Assembly: GCA_003193925.1 (NCBI GenBank)
Contig: PSPG01000002.1
Location: forward strand, 32,001-96,000
Length of the DNA stretch: 64,000 nt
Direction of reading: 5' to 3'
Origin: Candidatus Thalassarchaeum betae
GTDB lineage: Archaea > Thermoplasmatota > Poseidoniia > Poseidoniales > Thalassarchaeaceae
The position numbers and the translations under genes are program-made. The notes beneath the pieces are model-generated. The model was not told the origin of the DNA, searched no databases, and saw only the letters and a program-made list of their open reading frames with translations. Numbering within the stretch: position 1 is the first letter of the stretch; the number at the start of each line of letters is the position of its first letter. Shown here one piece after another: positions 5,013 through 21,093 of this stretch.

Positions 5013-7391
5013 ATGAGGACTCGTTCAGGTGTGGCGATTATCCTCCTGTTCCTTGTCTCCATGGCACCGGTGGTGCCATTTGCCGCCGCTGACACCGTCA
5101 TCGGCGCCGAAGGGGTCGAACTCCTCGAAGCGGGAGATTTCTCGGACGCCGAGCAGTGGGAGGTGTCCGCCACCGCCGGATTCTCCAGCGAGCAGGCCGA
5201 GCATTCGGGGGGGATGGTCGCCGACGGTGAGCTGTCCTTCACCCACGACAGGCCGGACAACTTCGCGCAACTGACCTCCTGGGCCACATACAGCCCGACT
5301 TCGTCGAACGCCACCCTAGGCCAGCCGGACTCGTACTACACCTGGTCCAAAGGCCCGAACATCACTATGAACGGGTACGACTTCGCGGGACTGCACGGCA
5401 TGCAGATCGCGAACGTCTCCATGGTCCTGCACTTCTCCATCCCCGATGAGCTCTACCAGGACTCGGTGAGGGTCATCCTGCAGAATCACGGCTCCGACAA
5501 GCTGGTGGTGACCTTCGCGAGGACCTTCGGCCCGATTCACAGGATGTCCAATCCCCTCGTTCTGCCGCTGGAAGAAATTATTCAGATGGACTGGGGTTCT
5601 CTCGAGGGCACCCAGTTCACAGTCGACTACGTCTCTCAGGGGACGAGTGACGACTCCGAGATCAGAGTAGATGCGGTCGGGCTGCGGGTCAAGTACCACC
5701 AGCCCTGGTACTCCTTCGAGACCACCAAGGCCATTCACACCGTCACCGGGGTTGATTCGCCGGTGATTGACCACGATCCCTATGACGGGGAGATCGTGGG
5801 GCTGTCACAGGAGAACTGCGGGCTCACCCCCGACGGGCCCGGAATGGGGTACTGGACCTTCGACGTCGAGGTTCCCCCACTGCAGCAATTGGGGCGAATA
5901 CATGTCTATGGGACCGGGAATCACACAATCTGGGCTCTGCCTGACGGAGTCGACGGAGACTACAGCGAGAAGCAATCGGGGGAACTGCTAGATAACCCCG
6001 ATTCCACCCAGCAAATCCGCATCGACATCGAGGACGGATGCATCTCCCTAGCGAGAGTGGATGTCAACGACCCGCACCTCGTGGTCCATGGGGTCGTTTC
6101 AGGGGAGCTCGGAGGCCTAGCCGGCACGAGTTACATTCGATTCGCCATCGGCAGCGATTTAATCGCCAGCATACCGATGGAGGGCGGCGCCTTCGTTATT
6201 GATGTCCCTGTGGGTTACGCTCTGCCTGAACAGTGGGGGGAGATGGTCGCCGGGGTCGCTGCGAGGTTCCAATGGTCCTCGAACGGGACCGCCGAGACCA
6301 CCGTGGTGCACATCCACTCGATCTCCATCACTGGTGGCTACGATGTCGAGTGGGACCTCGACCCTGAGTGCATGCCGCTAGAGGACATGTCATTCGACGA
6401 GGATGACGCGGGTGTACACATCCCGATGGACGTCAGGTGCAGCGACGACATCACCGCACCTGAAGACCTAGCACTGAGCGCAGTCAGCGGAGACCCGACT
6501 GTCATCGAGGCGACCATCGTCGACCAGTATGTCAGGATCCAACCAGTCAGGGACGCTTGGGGCGAGACTACTGTCGAGGTCAAAGTCGAGGACGAACGCG
6601 GCAACATCTGGACGGGTGAGATGAGCATCACGGTGAACCCGATTGAGGACCCTCCGGTCCTCGAGGGGCTCCCCCTCACAGTTTACATCGAGTTGGGCGA
6701 GACGATGGTCGTCGACATCACCGTGAAAGATTCCGACACCCAGTCTCTAACCCTCTCGGCCAGCCGCTCCTGGGCTACTTTCGATGCCGCTGACGATCTG
6801 GTCCTGACTCCGGTTATGGACGGCACCCACATGGTCGAAATCAGTGTCAGCGACGGAACCAACCACATCTCCCAGGTGGTCGAGGTCATCGTGACGGCAA
6901 AACCCGACCTCTTGATCGATTCTATCGACGTGAGGCGGGACGGACTGACCGTTTCGGAGCTGGTACACGGGGATGTCATCGAGATCTACGCCTATGTCAG
7001 GAACGAGGGGCGAGGAGTAGCCGATGCCGTATACGTCAAGTGCACGGTCGGGGGAATCCTGGTCGGTGCTGTCATGGTCGATTCCATAGCACCTGGCGGA
7101 TTAGGCGTAGCAGTCTGCGATGCGCAGGTCTCAGGGCCCGACGATGCCTTGGCCATCGAGGTCATGGCTGACGGCACCGCATCGATAGACGAGACCTCCG
7201 AGAGCAACAACGTCCGCTCGATCACAATGATAGTGAACGAGAGGAAGACCGATTCAGGCAGTGGCCTGATGGACTCTATTGATCGGGGTCCCGCAATCGT
7301 CTTCCTCGCCATAGGGGTCAGCCTGATCGCCCTCACAGCGCTGTATTTCAGCCCCGGCAAGGTGCGCAAATCGTACGAACGCGAAAAGTAG
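5013..7391 (+). CDS. secreted, membrane-anchored surface protein with cadherin-like Ig repeats and CARDB domain
   Basis: Signal peptide; FDED...ITVNPIEDPP cadherin-like motifs; KPDL...VRNEG...IDETSESNN CARDB; C-terminal TM plus basic tail. Confidence 0.85.
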   Translation: MRTRSGVAIILLFLVSMAPVVPFAAADTVIGAEGVELLEAGDFSDAEQWEVSATAGFSSEQAEHSGGMVADGELSFTHDRPDNFAQLTSWATYSPTSSNATLGQPDSYYTWSKGPNITMNGYDFAGLHGMQIANVSMVLHFSIPDELYQDSVRVILQNHGSDKLVVTFARTFGPIHRMSNPLVLPLEEIIQMDWGSLEGTQFTVDYVSQGTSDDSEIRVDAVGLRVKYHQPWYSFETTKAIHTVTGVDSPVIDHDPYDGEIVGLSQENCGLTPDGPGMGYWTFDVEVPPLQQLGRIHVYGTGNHTIWALPDGVDGDYSEKQSGELLDNPDSTQQIRIDIEDGCISLARVDVNDPHLVVHGVVSGELGGLAGTSYIRFAIGSDLIASIPMEGGAFVIDVPVGYALPEQWGEMVAGVAARFQWSSNGTAETTVVHIHSISITGGYDVEWDLDPECMPLEDMSFDEDDAGVHIPMDVRCSDDITAPEDLALSAVSGDPTVIEATIVDQYVRIQPVRDAWGETTVEVKVEDERGNIWTGEMSITVNPIEDPPVLEGLPLTVYIELGETMVVDITVKDSDTQSLTLSASRSWATFDAADDLVLTPVMDGTHMVEISVSDGTNHISQVVEVIVTAKPDLLIDSIDVRRDGLTVSELVHGDVIEIYAYVRNEGRGVADAVYVKCTVGGILVGAVMVDSIAPGGLGVAVCDAQVSGPDDALAIEVMADGTASIDETSESNNVRSITMIVNERKTDSGSGLMDSIDRGPAIVFLAIGVSLIALTALYFSPGKVRKSYEREK

Positions 7392-9132: not shown

Positions 9133-10062
9133 TCACCTCCATTCATCCCGGCACACTTCGCACCTCAGCCTGCCCTTTGAGGTCCTTGAGACCATGTTCG
9201 AGTCGCAGGACGGGCAAGTGGTTCCCGACTTGGGAGGCGCTGAATGCACGTTGCCGCCTCTCCTCCTCGCTGCTGCGGCGGCTTGGCCCCCCGTCTTGCG
9301 CGGTCCAGCCCTCCTGCGCTGGGCTCTGCGGACCCTCACGTCGTCGCTCGACTTGGCCTTCTCCTCCTCTAGCAGATACAGGAGAGGCTCGGGGATCGGG
9401 TCTCCGGCGACGACGAGCGGATGGCTCCGGTAGCGGAAGAGCTTGATGTGCCGGTCGATGATTCGTCCCAAAGGCGCGCTCATCGTGATGTAGGTGGCAA
9501 TCCAAGCGGGGAATATCCACATCACCCTGTCGTTGAACTCCCACATCGGCACCCAAGGCAGGCTGACGAAGGCCACTCTGAAGGTCTCCACCTCACTGGC
9601 CATCCAACTGAAGATTGCGATGATGAAGACCATCGTGAACATCATCGGCCTCATCATCGCTGACTGCATGGCCATCTGCTCGGGCATCAGTTCCATCTGC
9701 AGCTTCTGCATCTTGTCCGCCCGGGCTGTGTCACGGGCCATCTGGGCCTCTCTGAGTTGCTTACTGACCTGGCGTTGGCGGTGACTGAAATGAGCCTGTC
9801 TCAAGGGGTCCATGAAGAAGGACCGGATGATAGTGTTCACAACCATGATGCTGGAGCCGACGATGAACACCGTCGGAACGAAGTACAACGAGTGGAACGG
9901 GAGCAGGGGTATGAGGACGTAACCCGCCCCGTCGGCCAATGCTATCCGAAGGCTTGGGTTGAGCATCAGCACCACCATCATCACCAGGAGGAAGAGCATT
10001 GGAAGCATCATCGAGGACATGGCCTCGGCCTGCGAGTCGCTGCTGGTGCCCGCTGATGCCAT
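9133..10062 (-). CDS. DUF106 / EMC3-TMCO1 (Oxa1 superfamily) membrane protein with C-terminal Zn ribbon
   Basis: TM, Met/Gln-rich coiled coil, RPMMFTM, WIATY; CPSC...CEVC tail; next to cmk. Confidence 0.85.
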   Translation of the reverse strand: MASAGTSSDSQAEAMSSMMLPMLFLLVMMVVLMLNPSLRIALADGAGYVLIPLLPFHSLYFVPTVFIVGSSIMVVNTIIRSFFMDPLRQAHFSHRQRQVSKQLREAQMARDTARADKMQKLQMELMPEQMAMQSAMMRPMMFTMVFIIAIFSWMASEVETFRVAFVSLPWVPMWEFNDRVMWIFPAWIATYITMSAPLGRIIDRHIKLFRYRSHPLVVAGDPIPEPLLYLLEEEKAKSSDDVRVRRAQRRRAGPRKTGGQAAAAARRRGGNVHSAPPKSGTTCPSCDSNMVSRTSKGRLRCEVCRDEWR

Positions 10063-10131
10063 GTACCCTCGCTCCGCCAGAACAGGATGAACGCTTCGGT
10101 GGACGCCAAAGGCGTCCAATCGGTTCCGCAA

Positions 10132-12723
10132 TCAGAGGGAATAACTGCAGACGACGCATACCGATGCGCCTATTTCCGCCTCGGAACCGCATATTGGGCA
10201 GACCTCGCCCCCAGGCGCACCAGCCGCTTCCTCCTCCTCTGGCTCTTCTTCCTGCGGCTCTGGCTCCCCTTCCTGAGACTCTTCTTCCTGAGGCTCTTCT
10301 CCCTCCGGCTCTGGCTCCTCGGGTTCTGACTCTGGCTCTGGCTGTCTGGGAAGTTCGGGGACCCTCTCCGGGTCCACCCACTCTGGAAGGTTAGGCTCCT
10401 CGTCGACCTCTGCGCCGAAGGTGGCGCCGTGGAAGTCCTGAGCGTCAGAGACCTTGTACTCCGACTCGGGGTCCCCTTGGATCTCGTATGTCACCTCTAT
10501 CCTCTCTCCCCGCTCAATCCTGCCAATCTTCCACTCGGTATGGGTCCCCTCGGGGGCTGCCTCCTTCTTCATGCGCACATCACGCTCGCCGTCAATCGAA
10601 GAGCGCACCGTGGAGTCCTCGATCGAGAAGGTCCCGGGAACCACGTCATGTAGAGCGAGGTCGTCGAGGGCGCTGTCGGAGTTGTTCTCGAACATCAGCA
10701 GGACCTCGTACCTGCCGGCGTTGCCAGCTGGAAAGACCTCCTTTCCAGTGCTCACGTTGCGCCGGCGGTGGACGACTCGCATCTGAGGGGGTCTCTCTAC
10801 GACCCTGGTCGCCACAGGACCAAACTTCTCGGAACCGAAGTCGGCCCTGATGGGGGCTGCTAGGAGCTCGTTCGCCGGAGAGGGGTCTGGTGCATGCAGC
10901 GGATACCTGATCACCATGGTCTTGCCGGGCTGGAGGCCGAGTGGGGCAGAAGTGCCTACGGTGATTCTCAGTCCGTGGCCTTCGCTGTCTGGGGAGATCA
11001 TCCTCTCTTCCAGCTGAATCCCGTTGATCACCTCTATCAGGTACTGCTCCTCATTGAGGTCGGTACCCCCGATCTCGATGCTCACGTCGTCCTGCGAAGG
11101 GGGGTCGAAGATCCCCGGGACGTCATCCAGCAGACGCATGACGTTAATCGGGGCCGAGCCGTTGTTCTCAATCGATATCGTAGCCTCGATATCAGAAGGC
11201 ACGAACGACTTGATCCTAGATTTATCATACTGCTTGAGCAGTACTGCGTCCAGCACGGTCAGTTTCTGCTCCTTCAAGTCGATCGATCCCCTTGACTCGA
11301 CGGCCACACGAGGCAGGATGGAGGACCTGAACTCGTGGGTGAAACTGGGGCTGTCGGCCTCCACCCTCTTCTCCATGGAACTCCAGCTCCCCTCGGGAGG
11401 GACGTCCTGACGGAGGTCAGAGATGTCCAGTATCGGATTTTCTCTGCCGGACTGCCAGACAGTCACCCCCGACAGTGTAACCACGAAGGAGGATCTGTTC
11501 TCGAACACGGACTTGCAGTGCCAGATCCCGGGTCTGTCATCCTCGACCTTGTCGACTCTCATCATGTGTAGGGTGGAGCCGGAGACGCGGTCGAAGTCGG
11601 CTCTCGAGACCGTCGCCTCAGCAGTGTAATTCGCGGAAGCGACGCCGGCGGAAATCTTGTCGACCCCCCCGGTGGTGACTCTGGGCGAGAGGGCGAGCAC
11701 CCTGCTCTCACCGACGTTGAGCCTGCCGATCTCCCAGGAGATATATGAATCCCCGACGCTGTACTCAGGGCCGTCGGGAATGTGGAAGTTGTCCGGGAAG
11801 GTCCTGCTGACCTCGACCTCCAAGAGAGGGCCGGGCGAGATGTTCTCGACCTCGAGCTGCAACTCAATCTCCTGTTGCTCCTCGGAGAAGACCAGTGACA
11901 GACTATCCTCCTGGTCCCTCTCCGGGTTGGTGTCGATGGATTCCTTCAGGACCAGCATCCGAGGACCGCTGGCGGAGTATGGGATTACCGTGTCCTCGGT
12001 GGCCTCGAGCTCCCTCACGGATATCGAGCGCCCTCCGATGTCTGTGGCGCTAGTTGATGAGAGTAGTACCTCTATGTCCCATGCCCTGTGCTTCTTGCTT
12101 GCGTTTCGCAGTATCAGTTCGCCTTCTATGGTCTGCCGCCTGATCGAGCCGTCGGGATTCAGGGTGGAGGTCTCCACTTCGCTCAGGGTGGCGTGTAGCT
12201 TGTCGCCCGGGATCGCGTCCACCTCCCTGGCGGACCTCAGGTGGGGAGAGGAAGCCGGAGCCACTACCGCCTTGGATAGGGCGTCGGCAATGGGGGAGTC
12301 CTCTTCAGAGTCCAAGGAGTCCACGGAGGACTCGGGTTCAGCCCAGTCTATCTCGTCGGCCTCCTGGCTATCTCCCGCACCGCTCAGCGCGGCTAGCGAG
12401 TCCTGTAGAGAAGCAGGCTCCTCAGACTCCTCATCCGGGACATCCAAGCCGGGGGGAGGAGGTGGCGGTGAGTCGGGTCCGGATGGAGTGGGGGAGGGGG
12501 CGTCGAAGCCGGGAGGAGGAGAAGGGGCCTCCCCAGGCTCCTCATCAGGCTCACCCGAAATCTCCCTGTCCTCGAGTTCCATCAAGCCCGGTGGCGGAGG
12601 AGGTGGCGAGGGCGCTTGTTCGCCCTCCGAATCGTCATCCTCCTCTTCCTCGAAACCGGGTGGGGGGGGCGGAGGAGGAGGGAGGGGGAACCCTGAAGGA
12701 GGGGGAGGGGGCTCTTCTGACAT
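10132..12723 (-). CDS. large acidic, proline-rich hypothetical protein with tandem beta-sandwich (DUF11-like) domains and C-terminal Zn ribbon
   Basis: PPPPG repeats; WEIGRLNVGES and WKIGRIERGE strands; CPIC...CVVC; no signal peptide. Confidence 0.8.
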   Translation of the reverse strand: MSEEPPPPPSGFPLPPPPPPPPGFEEEEDDDSEGEQAPSPPPPPPGLMELEDREISGEPDEEPGEAPSPPPGFDAPSPTPSGPDSPPPPPPGLDVPDEESEEPASLQDSLAALSGAGDSQEADEIDWAEPESSVDSLDSEEDSPIADALSKAVVAPASSPHLRSAREVDAIPGDKLHATLSEVETSTLNPDGSIRRQTIEGELILRNASKKHRAWDIEVLLSSTSATDIGGRSISVRELEATEDTVIPYSASGPRMLVLKESIDTNPERDQEDSLSLVFSEEQQEIELQLEVENISPGPLLEVEVSRTFPDNFHIPDGPEYSVGDSYISWEIGRLNVGESRVLALSPRVTTGGVDKISAGVASANYTAEATVSRADFDRVSGSTLHMMRVDKVEDDRPGIWHCKSVFENRSSFVVTLSGVTVWQSGRENPILDISDLRQDVPPEGSWSSMEKRVEADSPSFTHEFRSSILPRVAVESRGSIDLKEQKLTVLDAVLLKQYDKSRIKSFVPSDIEATISIENNGSAPINVMRLLDDVPGIFDPPSQDDVSIEIGGTDLNEEQYLIEVINGIQLEERMISPDSEGHGLRITVGTSAPLGLQPGKTMVIRYPLHAPDPSPANELLAAPIRADFGSEKFGPVATRVVERPPQMRVVHRRRNVSTGKEVFPAGNAGRYEVLLMFENNSDSALDDLALHDVVPGTFSIEDSTVRSSIDGERDVRMKKEAAPEGTHTEWKIGRIERGERIEVTYEIQGDPESEYKVSDAQDFHGATFGAEVDEEPNLPEWVDPERVPELPRQPEPESEPEEPEPEGEEPQEEESQEGEPEPQEEEPEEEEAAGAPGGEVCPICGSEAEIGASVCVVCSYSL

Positions 12724-12847
12724 GGCGCTAACACCCCGATGGGTGGTCGCGGACGTGGCTTGGATTGGTATAACCATTACTTGTCGGACACTGAGCCGAT
12801 GGCAGGGCGTCACGAATGGTTGAAGTTCTCTCGCCCTTGGCGAGAGC

Positions 12848-13690
12848 GTGAGCAATCAGGACGGGACAGCGCCTCCAGTGCTGTTCGTCGTCGGTACCGC
12901 AGGTGCTGGAAAGAGTTCCTTGGTGACTGCCTTCCAACGGTGGGCGCGATTCCTCGAGGTCGATGTACTCGCGATCAACCTCGACCCCGGGGCCGAGAGG
13001 GTGCACTACGACGCGGAGTACGACGTCAGGGACCTCGTTTCGCTGTCTGACGTCATGGTCGAGTACGACCTAGGCCCTAACGGCGCTCAAATCCTGGCCG
13101 CTGACCTGGTGGCGGCACAGGCGACCGAAGTCTTCGACGAGATCGAGGGGCTGTCGTGCGATCTGCTGATTGTCGACACGCCGGGCCAGGTGGAACTGTT
13201 CGCCTTCAGAGAGGCCTCCAACCACCTCGTCAGCGTGATAGGCCAAGGCAGGGCCTGCCTAATCTTCCTGTTCGACCCGATGCTCTCACGGACTCCGAGC
13301 GGCTTCGTGGCGCAGATGCTCCTTTCGGCAATCGTGCACTTCAGGCTGGGGCTCCCTACAGCGAACTTCCTCTCCAAGTCGGACTTATTGGAGCCGGAGA
13401 CCCTCGAGAAGGTGATGGAGTGGGGCGACAACCTGGAGGCGCTGGAGGCCGCGTTGTACGAGGAATCGGCCCAGCAAGCCCTCGACAGCCAGTCCGGCAG
13501 CCAAAGGGCCGAGTTCGCCATAGGCCAGCTCAGGATGATGCAGCACGCGTCGATACAGCCTGGCTTGGTGCCCCTTTCCAGTGAGGAGGAGGAGGGACTT
13601 GCCGACGTGCTGACCTTCGCACAGTCAGTATTCGGCGGAATGGCTGATGCCAGAGACGGATTTGCAGGGGACATAGAGCATGAGAGGTAG
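12848..13690 (+). CDS. GPN-loop GTPase
   Basis: GTAGAGKS, NLDPG, LGPNG, DTPGQ, SKSD. Confidence 0.93.
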   Translation: MSNQDGTAPPVLFVVGTAGAGKSSLVTAFQRWARFLEVDVLAINLDPGAERVHYDAEYDVRDLVSLSDVMVEYDLGPNGAQILAADLVAAQATEVFDEIEGLSCDLLIVDTPGQVELFAFREASNHLVSVIGQGRACLIFLFDPMLSRTPSGFVAQMLLSAIVHFRLGLPTANFLSKSDLLEPETLEKVMEWGDNLEALEAALYEESAQQALDSQSGSQRAEFAIGQLRMMQHASIQPGLVPLSSEEEEGLADVLTFAQSVFGGMADARDGFAGDIEHER

Positions 13691-17966: not shown

Positions 17967-20900
17967 TCAGTCGAAGTCGCTGCACAGCTCGCCCTGACTG
18001 GGAAAGCTGACTGCCGACTTGGGGTTGGTGTTCCACTTGTTCTCGCACTTGTTGAGATACCCGTCGCCGTCCGAGTCGATGTTGGCGTCGGCCGGGTCAA
18101 ACGGATCGAAGCCGAAGTAGTACTCCCATCCTGACCACATGCCGTCGTCGTCCTGGTCCTGGTGATACACCTCCGAGCCATCGAACCACTGATCGCCGTC
18201 TGTATCCGGGTCGACGGGATTCGTCCCGTTCTCGAACTCCTCGTAGTTGGTGAAGTTCTCGAGGTCGTCGTAGAACCTCCTGCCGTTGTCTGTGGTCGGG
18301 TCGATGTGGCACTCGGAGTTCTGCGGGTTGTCCCATCCGGGGCAGTAGCGATACAACAGGTGCGTCCGATTGAGCCCGTCGCCGTCGAAGTCCTCCTGGC
18401 CGTCGTCGATGCCATCGACGTCCGAGTCGAACATCTTCGGGTCCATCGGACCGCGGGCTCCGACGGCGCTCAGGGTGTTGTTGTCGACCAGCCCCAGGCT
18501 GAGTGCTATCTCCGAGTAGTAGACCTCCCAGCCGTCGGGAAGCTTGTCCCCGTCGGTGTCGTCGTCCACTGGGTTGGTGTCCCAGCGGTCAGGGGCCTCG
18601 AGAGAGTTCATGAGTGTGTCATTGTCGATGTCGAAGGCCGAGTCGGGAAGCGAGCCCCATGCCGGGTTGAGGGCCCATCGTCCGCTGGCGGGTACGGTGA
18701 AACCTGACAGGTTCATCTCGTGCAGGAAGTACTTCGGATCCATGTCGCCGTCGCCGTCTCGGTCCCCGGAGGTCGAGAAGCCCGCGAGGTAACTGCTCCA
18801 GACCCAGCCACCGGGCCCGAGTCCACACTCGAGCATCGAATCACAGCCCGGCGGTAGCCAGTCGGTGACGCTGATCCAGAGGCTGTGGCTCTTCGTGTTG
18901 TGCTGGACGGAGAAGACCTGCATCTCCCAGCCATCGGGCTGACCGTCGCCGTCAGTGTCGTTGTTCAGTGGGTTGGTGGCACCCTGCCAAGGCCGTGGGA
19001 TGTTGAGTACCTCGCTACCGTCGAACAGGCCGTCGTCGTCACTGTCGGGGTTGTTGGCGTGGGTGATGTACTGGTCGAGGCCGTCGATGACCTCCTCCCC
19101 GTCGGACAGGCCGTCGAGGTCGGTATCGTGCGAAGAGGCATTGGTGAAGTACACCGAACCGTTCCATACGAAGCCGTCAACGGCCTCGGTGAAGTCCTCG
19201 AGACCGTCACTGTCGGTGTCCCTGTCAGAGGCATTGGTGAAAGTTTCGTAGTACTCGACAGCGTCGGACAAGCCGTCCCTGTCGGTGTCGTAGGCACCCG
19301 GATCGCTCCTTACTAAGACATCCCTCACACCCTGATCGACGATGCGAATGGTCCAGCCGATCACCTCGATGCCGTCGATGAGTCCGTCTCCGTCGGTATC
19401 GGCGACCAGCGGGTCGGTCGAGCGGCCGTCGACGAAGCCATCGCCGTCCCGGTCCCTCGCATTGTACTCGTCGAGGTTGGTGAAGCGCTCGTGCTCCTCG
19501 ACGACTACGGCGAGGTCCTGTAGACGGCTCGTGACCTCCTGGCCGATCTCGACGTTGATGTGGTAGATCCAGCCGGCGATCAGGGTCTTGATCGGGATGT
19601 TGACGTACTGGCTCTCCTGGACAGTCCTGACCCAGAGGATGGTGCTGTTGACCTGCACGTAGTCGCCGATCTCGACCGAGATGGCATGGATGGTGGTCAC
19701 GCCAACGAGCCCTGTGTATCGCACGCCCCCGTCGCCGTCGGCGTCGTAACCGTCGAAGTCGGGGTCGTCGTCAGCGTTGCTGCCGTCGTTCGGATGGATT
19801 CCGCTGAGGTGCTCCCACCCGTCGGGCATGCCGTCACCGTCGGTGTCGAACTCCAGCGGATTGGTGAAGTTCTCCGGACCCCAGGTGTAGGCGACCTCGT
19901 ACTCCTCGACGTTGTTCAGCCCGTCCCCGTCGGGGTCGCCGTAGGCGTCGGTGGCGTTGGCGGGGTTAAGGAAGCGGTCGCCCGAGGAATCGAGGCTGTA
20001 GCAGTACTCGAAGCCGTCGGGCATGCCGTCGCCGTCGGTGTCCCAGTCGCCCGGACCGTTGAGGCGGCCGTCGTTGTCCATGTCCTGCTCGAACCAGGTC
20101 CGGTCGCCGTGGCCGCTCATGTACTCCGTGTACGGCGCTTGCAGGGTCAAGGTGCCGAAGACGGGGACGCCGCAGTGGACGCCCAGTTGGATCTGCCCGT
20201 AGGCGATCTCGTACCTGTCTGCAATGAGGTCGCCGTCGCTGTCCTCCTCGAGCGGGTTGGTGTCGTACCTCTCCTCGACGTAATTGCGCAGACTGTCGGG
20301 TTCGGGCTGCTCGAGGTCCAGCAGGGCATCGCACGAGTGGCCGAACTGGCTGCCCATCTCCTCCCACTCGCTCGAGCCGATGTCCTGCTCGATCTGCCCC
20401 TGGACCTCGGGAGTCAACAGGTAGCAGTCCCAGTTGCCGTCGAGTGGGTCGAGTAGGGTGATTGACCCCGAAGGGGTCTCGATAACGAAGGTGTACTCGG
20501 ACTCCCAGCGGTCATTCAGACCGTCGCCGTCGGTGTCCCTGAGATTGGGATTGGTGCCGAGGAGCATCTCCTCGGTGTTGGTCAGGCCGTCCCGGTCCGG
20601 GTCTCCGAAGGGCCCGTTGTCCGGATTGGGGAAGGTCTCGTTCTGCTCCCCAGTCTCCTCCTCGTTGTCGGGGGAGTTGTGGGATATCTCGCTGAGGTCG
20701 GGCTCGCCGTTGTCCAGGGGATCCAGCCCATTGGCTATCTCCCACCCGTCGTCGAGCCCGTCGCCATCGGTGTCGGCCTCCCTCCAGTCGGTTCCGTAGA
20801 GCGTCTGCTCCATCCTGTCCGGCAGTCCGTCGCCGTCGAAGTCCTCCCCGCCGACGTGGGTGTCGTCGCTGGATACGATGTCCCCCGCTGCTGGTTCGAA

Positions 20901-21011
20901 GCCGCCGGAAGTGGTGGTGGACAGGCCGGCGTCGATGATGGTGTAGAAGCCGGCCAGACACAGCGTCGCTGTGATTGCAAGCACCGCATACTGGTTGTGA
21001 TTCAGAGCCAT
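17967..21011 (-). CDS. membrane-anchored protein with many DxDxDG (thrombospondin type 3-like) Ca-binding repeats
   Basis: N-terminal TM; more than 15 D[TS]DGDG[LM]xDGxE...[DN]P repeats. Confidence 0.88.
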   Translation of the reverse strand: MALNHNQYAVLAITATLCLAGFYTIIDAGLSTTTSGGFEPAAGDIVSSDDTHVGGEDFDGDGLPDRMEQTLYGTDWREADTDGDGLDDGWEIANGLDPLDNGEPDLSEISHNSPDNEEETGEQNETFPNPDNGPFGDPDRDGLTNTEEMLLGTNPNLRDTDGDGLNDRWESEYTFVIETPSGSITLLDPLDGNWDCYLLTPEVQGQIEQDIGSSEWEEMGSQFGHSCDALLDLEQPEPDSLRNYVEERYDTNPLEEDSDGDLIADRYEIAYGQIQLGVHCGVPVFGTLTLQAPYTEYMSGHGDRTWFEQDMDNDGRLNGPGDWDTDGDGMPDGFEYCYSLDSSGDRFLNPANATDAYGDPDGDGLNNVEEYEVAYTWGPENFTNPLEFDTDGDGMPDGWEHLSGIHPNDGSNADDDPDFDGYDADGDGGVRYTGLVGVTTIHAISVEIGDYVQVNSTILWVRTVQESQYVNIPIKTLIAGWIYHINVEIGQEVTSRLQDLAVVVEEHERFTNLDEYNARDRDGDGFVDGRSTDPLVADTDGDGLIDGIEVIGWTIRIVDQGVRDVLVRSDPGAYDTDRDGLSDAVEYYETFTNASDRDTDSDGLEDFTEAVDGFVWNGSVYFTNASSHDTDLDGLSDGEEVIDGLDQYITHANNPDSDDDGLFDGSEVLNIPRPWQGATNPLNNDTDGDGQPDGWEMQVFSVQHNTKSHSLWISVTDWLPPGCDSMLECGLGPGGWVWSSYLAGFSTSGDRDGDGDMDPKYFLHEMNLSGFTVPASGRWALNPAWGSLPDSAFDIDNDTLMNSLEAPDRWDTNPVDDDTDGDKLPDGWEVYYSEIALSLGLVDNNTLSAVGARGPMDPKMFDSDVDGIDDGQEDFDGDGLNRTHLLYRYCPGWDNPQNSECHIDPTTDNGRRFYDDLENFTNYEEFENGTNPVDPDTDGDQWFDGSEVYHQDQDDDGMWSGWEYYFGFDPFDPADANIDSDGDGYLNKCENKWNTNPKSAVSFPSQGELCSDFD

Positions 21012-21093
21012 GGAGGCACATCCGGCCCCAATGGGGCCGTCCGCTTGAATTTGGGTCCGGATATAATGTTTCACGGCAACCGAGCACGGGCAA

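Follow-up and report, generated by a model that had tools for sequence, protein, structure and literature searches.

The window analysed here is a 64,000-nucleotide stretch of the genome of Candidatus Thalassarchaeum betae (contig PSPG01000002.1; Thalassarchaeaceae, Poseidoniales, Thermoplasmatota), a Marine Group II archaeon. A minus-strand gene at positions 10132-12723 of the window encodes an 863-residue protein, and the first domain of the conserved three-part module in this protein is, by homology, very probably a genuine mu-homology domain (MHD). MHDs count as a hallmark of the adaptors that serve vesicle coats and endocytosis in eukaryotes, and their reported prokaryotic relatives are sparse Asgard hits to a Pfam profile. 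The wider statement, that of a soluble cytoplasmic protein whose conserved MHD-headed three-part module acts as a stand-alone adaptor or scaffold, is in our judgement evenly balanced when taken as a whole.

Fold and profile evidence for a mu-homology domain

We examined the fold with two AlphaFold2 models. Residues 165-790, with the whole module, were modelled on an alignment of 65 family members, 13 rows of which come from the Poseidoniales clade, and residues 165-490, with the MHD alone, were modelled separately, both with very high confidence (pLDDT 94.4 and pTM 0.81 for the former, pLDDT 97.4 and pTM 0.90 for the latter). Comparison of the MHD-only model with 48,161 PDB chains by VIA-align returned MHDs at all of the first ten ranks (mu2 three times, mu4, mu3A, delta-COP twice, SGIP1, mu1 and Syp1), with Z 15.8-11.9 and a root-mean-square deviation (rmsd) of 2.6-3.8 Å over 202-224 residues. 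Scores were 15.8 for mu2, 15.3 for mu4, 14.8 for mu3A, 14.2 for delta-COP, 13.6 for SGIP1, 13.2 for mu1 and 11.9 for Syp1, and these alignments (model residues 6-323, identity 11-14%) extend to both ends of the target domains. From rank 11 onward the matches are single sandwiches, with Z ≤10.8 and mostly 100-130 residues. Similarly, Foldseek with the same model placed AP2 mu2, mu3A, delta-COP and mu4 first (E 2e-10 to 1e-8, probability 1.00, TM-score by target 0.54-0.73), MHDs making up most of the 43 rows printed for ranks 1-50. The whole-module model behaved alike in VIA-align against the 48,161 PDB representatives: its residues 7-323 align to entire MHDs, AP2 mu2 at Z 14.4 (rmsd 2.7 Å, 215 residues), mu4 at 13.3, mu3A at 13.1, delta-COP at 12.5, SGIP1 at 12.3, mu1 at 11.5 and Syp1 at 11.1. 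An MHD is an all-beta domain of about 260 residues with two beta-sandwich subdomains, and the predicted structures support an assignment at the level of fold or superfamily, both subdomains being matched as one rigid unit.

A first-pass annotation, made from the letters alone, had compared the peptide KLHATLSEVETSTLNPDGSIRRQTIEGELILRN by eye with the start of eukaryotic MHDs. This peptide, given there at about 12103-12201, lies exactly at those positions and corresponds to residues 175-207. The MHD-like region that it took to start at KLHATLSE was recovered as a two-subdomain unit (model residues 6-323) which superposes on complete MHDs. It had also named independent Ig domains, and nothing else, as the outcome that would speak against its proposal. 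The predicted structure and fold search gave a different result, because MHDs alone fill ranks 1-10 over 202-224 residues. The anatomy of the protein derived from models, alignments and composition is as follows.

10132..12723, minus strand: complete coding sequence, 863 amino acids plus stop (10132-10134), ATG at 12723
12232..12723, minus strand: N-terminal disordered arm, residues 1-164, Pro-rich and acidic, five P(n)xG[FL] repeats (composition)
11263..12213, minus strand: predicted mu-homology domain, residues 171-487, model 7-323 (structure model, family profiles)
11917..12213, minus strand: predicted MHD subdomain A, first part, residues 171-269, containing the peptide at 12103-12201 (boundary estimated from the model strand list)
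12076-12105, minus strand: family motif NxSxxxRxW[DN] in subdomain A (alignment)
11584..11877, minus strand: predicted MHD subdomain B, residues 283-380, containing WEIGRL, the Pfam DUF11 stretch (aligns with mu2 residues 303-407)
11263..11568, minus strand: predicted MHD C-terminal part, residues 386-487 (aligned as far as the chain ends of mu2, mu3, mu4 and delta-COP)
11485-11505, minus strand: family motif FENxSxF in the MHD C-terminal part (alignment)
10771..11250, minus strand: fourth beta-sandwich, pilin/CnaB/cohesin-like, residues 492-651, model 328-487 (VIA-align)
10462..10755, minus strand: predicted fifth beta-sandwich, DUF11-like, residues 657-754, model 493-590, containing WKIGRI (model strands, pLDDT ~95)
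10210..10371, minus strand: acidic Glu/Pro-rich tail, residues 785-838 (composition)
10135..10200, minus strand: CxxC...CxxC zinc-ribbon-like motif, residues 842-863, the protein C-terminus (motif)

The conserved module, hereafter MHD-Ig-Ig, covers ~600 residues (residues ~171-754), and most of the distant family members consist of little else. Its fourth sandwich aligns in VIA-align with pilin/CnaB/cohesin-type sandwiches (Sgo0707, BcpA and RrgB at Z 13-14, rmsd 2.2-3.0 Å, 133-143 residues), and the domain equivalent to the fifth scores as DUF11 in many relatives. The corresponding C-terminal part of mu2 is said, after Owen and Evans in 1998, to be about 40 residues long; that of the window protein is ~60 longer.

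At the sequence level, the Pfam scan of the window protein gave DUF11 only (PF01345, 34.3 bits for a cut-off of 24.6, residues 283-380). This DUF11-annotated stretch is MHD subdomain B and not a free repeat. The DUF11 likeness seen in the first-pass annotation is not that of a rival domain. Of the two W-x-I strands that it had linked with both MHDs and DUF11 domains, WEIGRL (11719-11736) falls within the MHD and is aligned by the family hidden Markov model (HMM) with a mu2 strand of the same form, whereas WKIGRI (10516-10533) belongs to the separate C-terminal Ig-like domain.

Among the 65 aligned members, Pfam matches at E≤0.01 were obtained for DUF11 in 62 and for the MHD family PF00928 (Adap_comp_sub) in 28. 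When 59 members were scanned individually, seven exceeded the 31.6-bit cut-off of PF00928: P0148 (40.9 bits), P0211 (40.7), P0226 (39.6), P0163 (35.2), P0169 (34.9), P0197 (34.4) and P0246 (33.3). Most matching members cover profile positions ~120-240 only, i.e. the DUF11-scoring stretch, and four match the near-full profile, as illustrated by P0148, whose residues 108-325 correspond to positions 12-236 of 259. In one Asgard genome (G616), PF00928 matches, two of them above cut-off, occurred at all three sites matched by the family profile. Conversely, the 65-member family HMM searched against PDB sequences at E≤10 gave 31 matches: 28 MHD chains (from AP mu2, mu3, mu4, mu1 and delta-COP), one gamma-adaptin ear and two unrelated chains. 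The alignment to delta-COP covers profile positions 35-237. In the mu2 alignment the N-terminal consensus of the family is paired with the opening strands of the MHD, a stretch that is not significant by itself (1.7 bits).

Several results weigh against the MHD assignment. PF00928 has no match on the window protein even at E≤10, and none of the 13 Poseidoniales-clade rows of the alignment matches it. The protein is a remote MHD homologue and not a Pfam-defined member of PF00928, whose 31.6-bit cut-off it does not reach. The best E-value of the family HMM against PDB, 3.9e-4, is marginal. In addition, the window MHD is ~95 residues longer than eukaryotic MHDs, apparently mostly after subdomain B. 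The link to MHDs is made by transitive family evidence and by predicted structure, not by a PF00928 match of the window protein. An NCBIfam scan and a single-sequence search of PDB sequences with this protein gave nothing useful.

These points bring in a non-homologous explanation, in which independent DUF11/CARDB-type Ig domains were packed, two of them by chance, in an MHD-like manner. It accords with the DUF11-only Pfam result, and beta-sandwiches recur often, with middling Z-scores common among them. In the same sense, Foldseek of PDB with the whole-module model gave generic Ig arrays only (integrins, adhesins; TM-score <0.33); only the search with the MHD alone was informative. Against it, matches over two subdomains (202-224 residues) were obtained only to MHDs, above every single-sandwich match, and relatives match PF00928 positions 12-236, beyond the DUF11-like half. 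Furthermore, nearly all PDB chains found by the family HMM are MHDs, and a six-frame search with PF00928 matched none of 14 control prokaryote genomes; it was equally blank in the window genome, which says little in view of the silent controls. We consider chance likeness highly improbable, and the domain is treated below as an MHD.

Distribution of the family in Thermoplasmatota and Asgard archaea

A word-indexed search scored 7999 candidates, of which 796 are relatives at E≤1e-3; those that carry a name belong to Candidatus Thalassarchaeaceae, Poseidoniales, Thermoplasmatota or 'Euryarchaeota' metagenome-assembled genomes (MAGs). The first-pass annotation had singled out a homologue outside Asgard archaea as noteworthy, and close relatives named Thalassarchaeaceae or Poseidoniales place the protein there. 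The taxonomic distribution that it proposed to check takes in both Thermoplasmatota and Asgard genomes. When 1.84 billion cluster representatives were searched exhaustively with phmmer, 334 matched at E≤1e-3, including 60 at E≤1e-30; among them, many proteins of 590-750 residues were collinear with query residues ~15-600 at 22-30% identity. For example, P0148 matched at E 3.4e-43 over query residues 24-599, and its 80%-identical relative is a Lokiarchaeota protein. Distant members that carry a name come from Asgard lineages (Prometh-/Loki-, Hel-, Sigyn-, Thor-, Njord- and Hodarchaeota).

We then counted full-length matches in an even sample of 401 genomes of the phylum Thermoplasmatota. Both families of the window's order were nearly saturated, with 32 of 36 genomes in one (f1) and 54 of 58 in the other (f2), or 86 of 94 together. 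Elsewhere in the phylum, full-length matches were found in 23 of the 24 genomes of f18, a family of another class, in one of two genomes of f10 and in one genome each of f42 and f44; none was found in the 10 sampled genomes of f3, which belongs to the same class as the window. The remaining matches in the 401 genomes (E 1e-6 to 1e-10) are single DUF11-type domains. In an Asgard sample, drawn from the phylum of a Promethearchaeota genome, 209 of 251 genomes carried a match at E≤1e-30. Many Asgard genomes have two to five family-profile matches, which are partly pieces of one gene and should not be read as copy numbers. G616 has three full-length sites, and Thermoplasmatota genomes have one copy.

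In an unrooted FastTree of 90 proteins, the 16 rows known to be Thermoplasmatota fell on one side of a single branch with SH-like support of 89, and the Asgard rows require at least four label changes. This fits one origin of the family within Thermoplasmatota; the tree does not fix the root, hence descent versus transfer. P0126 groups with family-f2 loci. Separately, MAGs labelled Bathyarchaeota (G402) and Candidatus Deferrimicrobium, a bacterium (G403), contained two to five family matches; either these copies are mis-binned Asgard contigs or the distribution is wider.

Part of this distribution is already in print, namely Asgard members as Pfam hits. Table S3 of Eme et al. 2023 (PMC10307638) lists Asgard 'Adap_comp_sub' (PF00928) candidates as eukaryotic signature proteins, with 44 occurrences of PF00928, the first sequence of which shows the family motifs by eye. 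In the main text of that paper we found no mention of Thermoplasmatota or Poseidoniales. Makarova et al. 2024 describe adaptin-appendage-like domains, not MHDs, in euryarchaeal ESCRT loci, and Köstlbacher et al. 2026 report patchy adaptor-protein homologues in Asgard. Within the literature searched, most subscription journals lying outside it, no paper on an MHD in non-Asgard archaea was found. The following appear new: the presence of the family in Thermoplasmatota, with its near-universality in Poseidoniales and in a second family of the phylum; its high Asgard prevalence by family profile, far above the Pfam hits; the MHD-Ig-Ig architecture; the recognition of the 'DUF11' residues as subdomain B of an MHD; and the arms and zinc ribbon specific to Marine Group II (MGII).

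Since the family is near-universal in Poseidoniales, the MHD is either not an invention of Asgard plus eukaryotes or has moved between archaeal phyla. Its origin becomes approachable in a simpler setting, in which AP, Arf and ESCRT-III partners were not found. The practical consequence is for annotation: ESM Atlas clusters of relatives are labelled 'DUF11 domain-containing' or 'hypothetical', named close relatives are 'hypothetical protein', and hundreds of such entries are open to re-annotation.

Some family members carry additional parts. A Thorarchaeota member (P0236/P0277) has HEAT repeats (PF13646, 8.5e-15) N-terminal to the MHD-Ig-Ig module, and in another protein TPR repeats are fused to it; a HEAT or TPR solenoid and an MHD in a single chain recall adaptin plus mu. 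The tails of P0125, P0127 and P0129, longer proteins of the Poseidoniales clade, show by eye a DxDxNGYLxKxE-type, EF-hand-like loop before the zinc ribbon. This loop gave no Pfam EF-hand match at E≤0.01 and is missing from 121 close relatives of the window protein.

Comparison with known MHD proteins and proposed function

We compared the window protein with the classes of protein that carry an MHD or a DUF11 domain. Its models reproduce, across the entire domain, the two-subdomain all-beta fold of AP mu1-mu5 and delta-COP, and its family has a weak but specific profile similarity to them. In contrast, AP mu and delta-COP have an N-terminal longin domain, whereas residues 1-164 here are Pro/Glu/Ser-rich; the window MHD is also followed by two further Ig-like domains, is ~95 residues longer and is only 11-14% identical. 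The longin profile (PF01217) had no match on the window protein; genome-wide it had none either, but the controls were equally silent, so that this search is uninformative. Profile searches of the window genome (1.48 Mb in 23 contigs, 91.8% complete) gave no match for Adaptin_N (PF01602; controls 3 of 14), for Arf (PF00025; controls 13 of 14) or for Snf7 (PF03357), negatives that at this completeness do not prove absence. With the longin domain missing and the searches for partner subunits negative, the protein is judged not to be a medium subunit of AP or COPI.

The monomeric muniscins and stonins are the closest working analogy, because longin domain and tetramer are lacking. Muniscins (FCHo1/2, SGIP1, yeast Syp1) and stonins likewise place a long disordered Pro-rich region ahead of an MHD and do not form part of a tetramer. 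The cargo-adaptor layout of disordered linker plus MHD, proposed in the first-pass annotation, agrees with the 26% Pro arm that precedes the MHD here and with the fold scores of SGIP1 (Z 13.6) and Syp1 (Z 11.9). The protein differs from both groups by having no F-BAR, phospholipid-binding or stonin-homology domain (Pfam finds DUF11 only), by an MHD that is internal instead of C-terminal, and by the added acidic tail and zinc ribbon. With the Asgard PF00928 candidates, as listed in Table S3 of Eme et al. 2023 (PMC10307638), it forms one collinear ~600-residue MHD-Ig-Ig family. Compared with these Asgard members, it has a Thermoplasmatota host, is single copy, lies below Pfam detection, carries the Pro-rich arm, acidic tail and zinc ribbon, and is without a beta-propeller neighbour. 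Finally, it resembles DUF11 (PF01345/TIGR01451) proteins in that residues 283-380 pass the Pfam cut-off and in relatives the last domain belongs to this type too. DUF11 arrays are usually secreted or surface proteins. In the window protein, which has no signal peptide, the stretch that scores as DUF11 is instead subdomain B of the MHD.

In the model that we find most likely, the MHD protein would act alone as a cytosolic adaptor or scaffold, as the monomeric muniscins and stonins do, outside any AP/COPI tetramer. The rigid MHD-Ig-Ig module would recognise a short peptide motif or a membrane-proximal partner, while the Pro-rich N-terminal arm with its PPPPG[FL] repeats, the Glu/Pro-rich C-terminal arm and the terminal zinc ribbon may recruit or tether other components. 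Among known ligands, mu2 binds YxxPhi motifs and PIP2, delta-COP binds Trp-based motifs, and muniscins bind DPF-type motifs; to our knowledge, every characterised MHD is a peptide- or membrane-binding module. By analogy with these proteins we hold the adaptor mechanism tentatively, at somewhat less than even confidence. Against it, a shared MHD fold does not prove a shared function, and ligand, partner and membrane association are predictions from analogy. Gene context gives no common partner either, the Poseidoniales, f18 and Asgard loci having different neighbours throughout.

A true MHD fold might instead serve a structural role, in a cytoskeletal or envelope scaffold or a self-assembling lattice, with the sandwiches as rigid spacer and the arms as entropic linkers. 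The rigid array of five sandwiches (pTM 0.81) is compatible with this, the last two domains resemble building blocks of pilins, adhesins and cohesins, DUF11-type repeats are typical of structural surface proteins, and a near-universal single-copy gene in the order fits a housekeeping structural part. However, the window protein has neither signal peptide nor transmembrane segment, and a hydrophobic N-terminal stretch occurs in only 2 of 304 family proteins (302 lack it), which makes a classical surface location unlikely; the MHD is moreover the only domain with specific, non-generic matches, and characterised MHDs, as far as we know, all bind peptide or membrane. We regard such a role as rather unlikely.

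Returning to the stand-alone adaptor, its strongest form would make MHD-Ig-Ig an ancient archaeal adaptor for cargo or linear motifs that predates eukaryotes, was the source of eukaryotic MHDs and acts alone at the MGII membrane. The module would then be shared by Asgard and Thermoplasmatota through descent or one old transfer, with subdomain B derived from a DUF11-type prokaryotic Ig domain, and the MGII protein would sort or position membrane proteins, possibly with the EMC3-like insertase or the GPN GTPase encoded beside it. We judge this unlikely; if true, it would represent a minimal one-protein precursor of coat adaptors in highly abundant surface-ocean archaea. In any case, the family is a concrete target for what the MHD did before coats, because the protein is soluble and the model very confident.

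Gene structure and neighbourhood

The minus-strand open reading frame (ORF) runs over 10132-12855 from a TTG, or over 10132-12723 from an ATG. The ATG start is likelier because the TTG ORF would cross the start of the divergent GPN-loop GTPase gene (12848), from which the ATG is separated by an intergenic gap of 124 bases. The gene is single copy in the window genome. Two genes flank it:

12848..13690, plus strand: GPN-loop GTPase, divergent neighbour (PF03029, 4.8e-52)
9133..10131, minus strand: EMC3/DUF106-type membrane insertase homologue, next gene downstream, start uncertain (PF01956, 2.3e-17)

Three further features of the first-pass annotation can be read from the gene. Its divergent GPN GTPase is the protein identified here by PF03029 (4.8e-52, 12848-13690). 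The disordered N-terminus corresponds to low-complexity residues 1-164 (26% Pro, 15% Glu and 14% Ser), and no signal-peptide- or transmembrane-like stretch, which it had likewise not seen, occurs in the 863 residues, the Kyte-Doolittle mean being ≤1.49 in every 19-residue window. Both ends of the protein recur in close relatives: at least one PPxG[FLMIVW] motif lies N-terminal to the module in 105 of 121, and CxxC...CxxC within the last 45 residues in 116 of 121, the latter being visible by eye in some distant members also. The zinc-ribbon-like motif has no Pfam match. Residues 791-840 contain 46% Glu and 22% Pro.

In Poseidoniales, with the MHD gene taken as plus, the order is UbiA(+), OTCase(-), GPN GTPase(-), MHD(+), EMC3/DUF106-like(+), cytidylate-kinase-like cmk(+) and Cbf5(+), the divergent junction lying between the GTPase and the MHD genes. 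Six of the 7 loci, drawn from both families, have this full order, and all 7 have its upstream GPN half. The insertase homologue (EMC3/TMCO1, DUF106) has an Arg-rich basic tail that ends in its own CxxC...CxxC zinc ribbon, a mirror image of the MHD protein, whose zinc ribbon follows an acidic tail. One could imagine from this a dedicated partner of the neighbours, with its acidic tail and zinc ribbon docking on the basic tail and zinc ribbon of the EMC3/DUF106-type insertase, or on the GPN-loop GTPase; this would couple the MHD module to the insertion of membrane proteins or to a GTPase switch. The conserved order (6 of 7 loci, 7 of 7 for the GPN arrangement), the opposite charges of the tails (46% Glu versus Arg-rich) and the CxxC...CxxC ends of both proteins would agree with it. 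However, the adjacency is limited to one order, other neighbours being found in f18 and Promethearchaeota, and the MHD gene may merely adjoin DUF106-cmk-Cbf5, a conserved archaeal housekeeping gene string. Such a partnership seems improbable to us.

The other loci differ. Those of families f18 and f10 (L018-L023) have a divergent NFACT (RqcH-like) gene and a conserved 382-residue protein without Pfam match, f18 also PfkB and PcrB. In Promethearchaeota loci a DUF4147/MOFRL (glycerate-kinase-like) gene lies upstream of the family gene. Downstream and on the same strand, a beta-propeller of ~550 residues was found in 19 loci labelled Promethearchaeota or Hodarchaeota (L034-L054), as the next ORF in 18 and after two small ORFs in L054. 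An example is given by locus L042:

7755-9908, plus strand: family gene
10073-11755, plus strand: beta-propeller

This Asgard beta-propeller matches the BBS7 beta-propeller model (7.6e-21, 75 bits for a cut-off of 27), BBS2_Mid and PHTB1_N. The Asgard MHD protein and its BBSome-type propeller could form a coat-like pair. The Promethearchaeota propeller used as query found no homologue in the 91.8%-complete window genome.

As to RNA data, one RNA-Seq library (X2) contains two short contigs that fall within the gene, at 10332-10504 and 10523-10673 (95-99% alike), which as contigs cannot show transcription, ends or strand. Further fragments of the gene occur in contigs of one doubtful 'RNA' run and of one run of unknown kind, most bins being uncovered. 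Elsewhere in the window, two probable surface proteins are encoded nearby: one of 792 residues at 5013-7391 (plus strand), with CARDB and Big_9 domains, and one of 1035 residues at 17967-21074 (minus strand), with bacterial TSP3 repeats.

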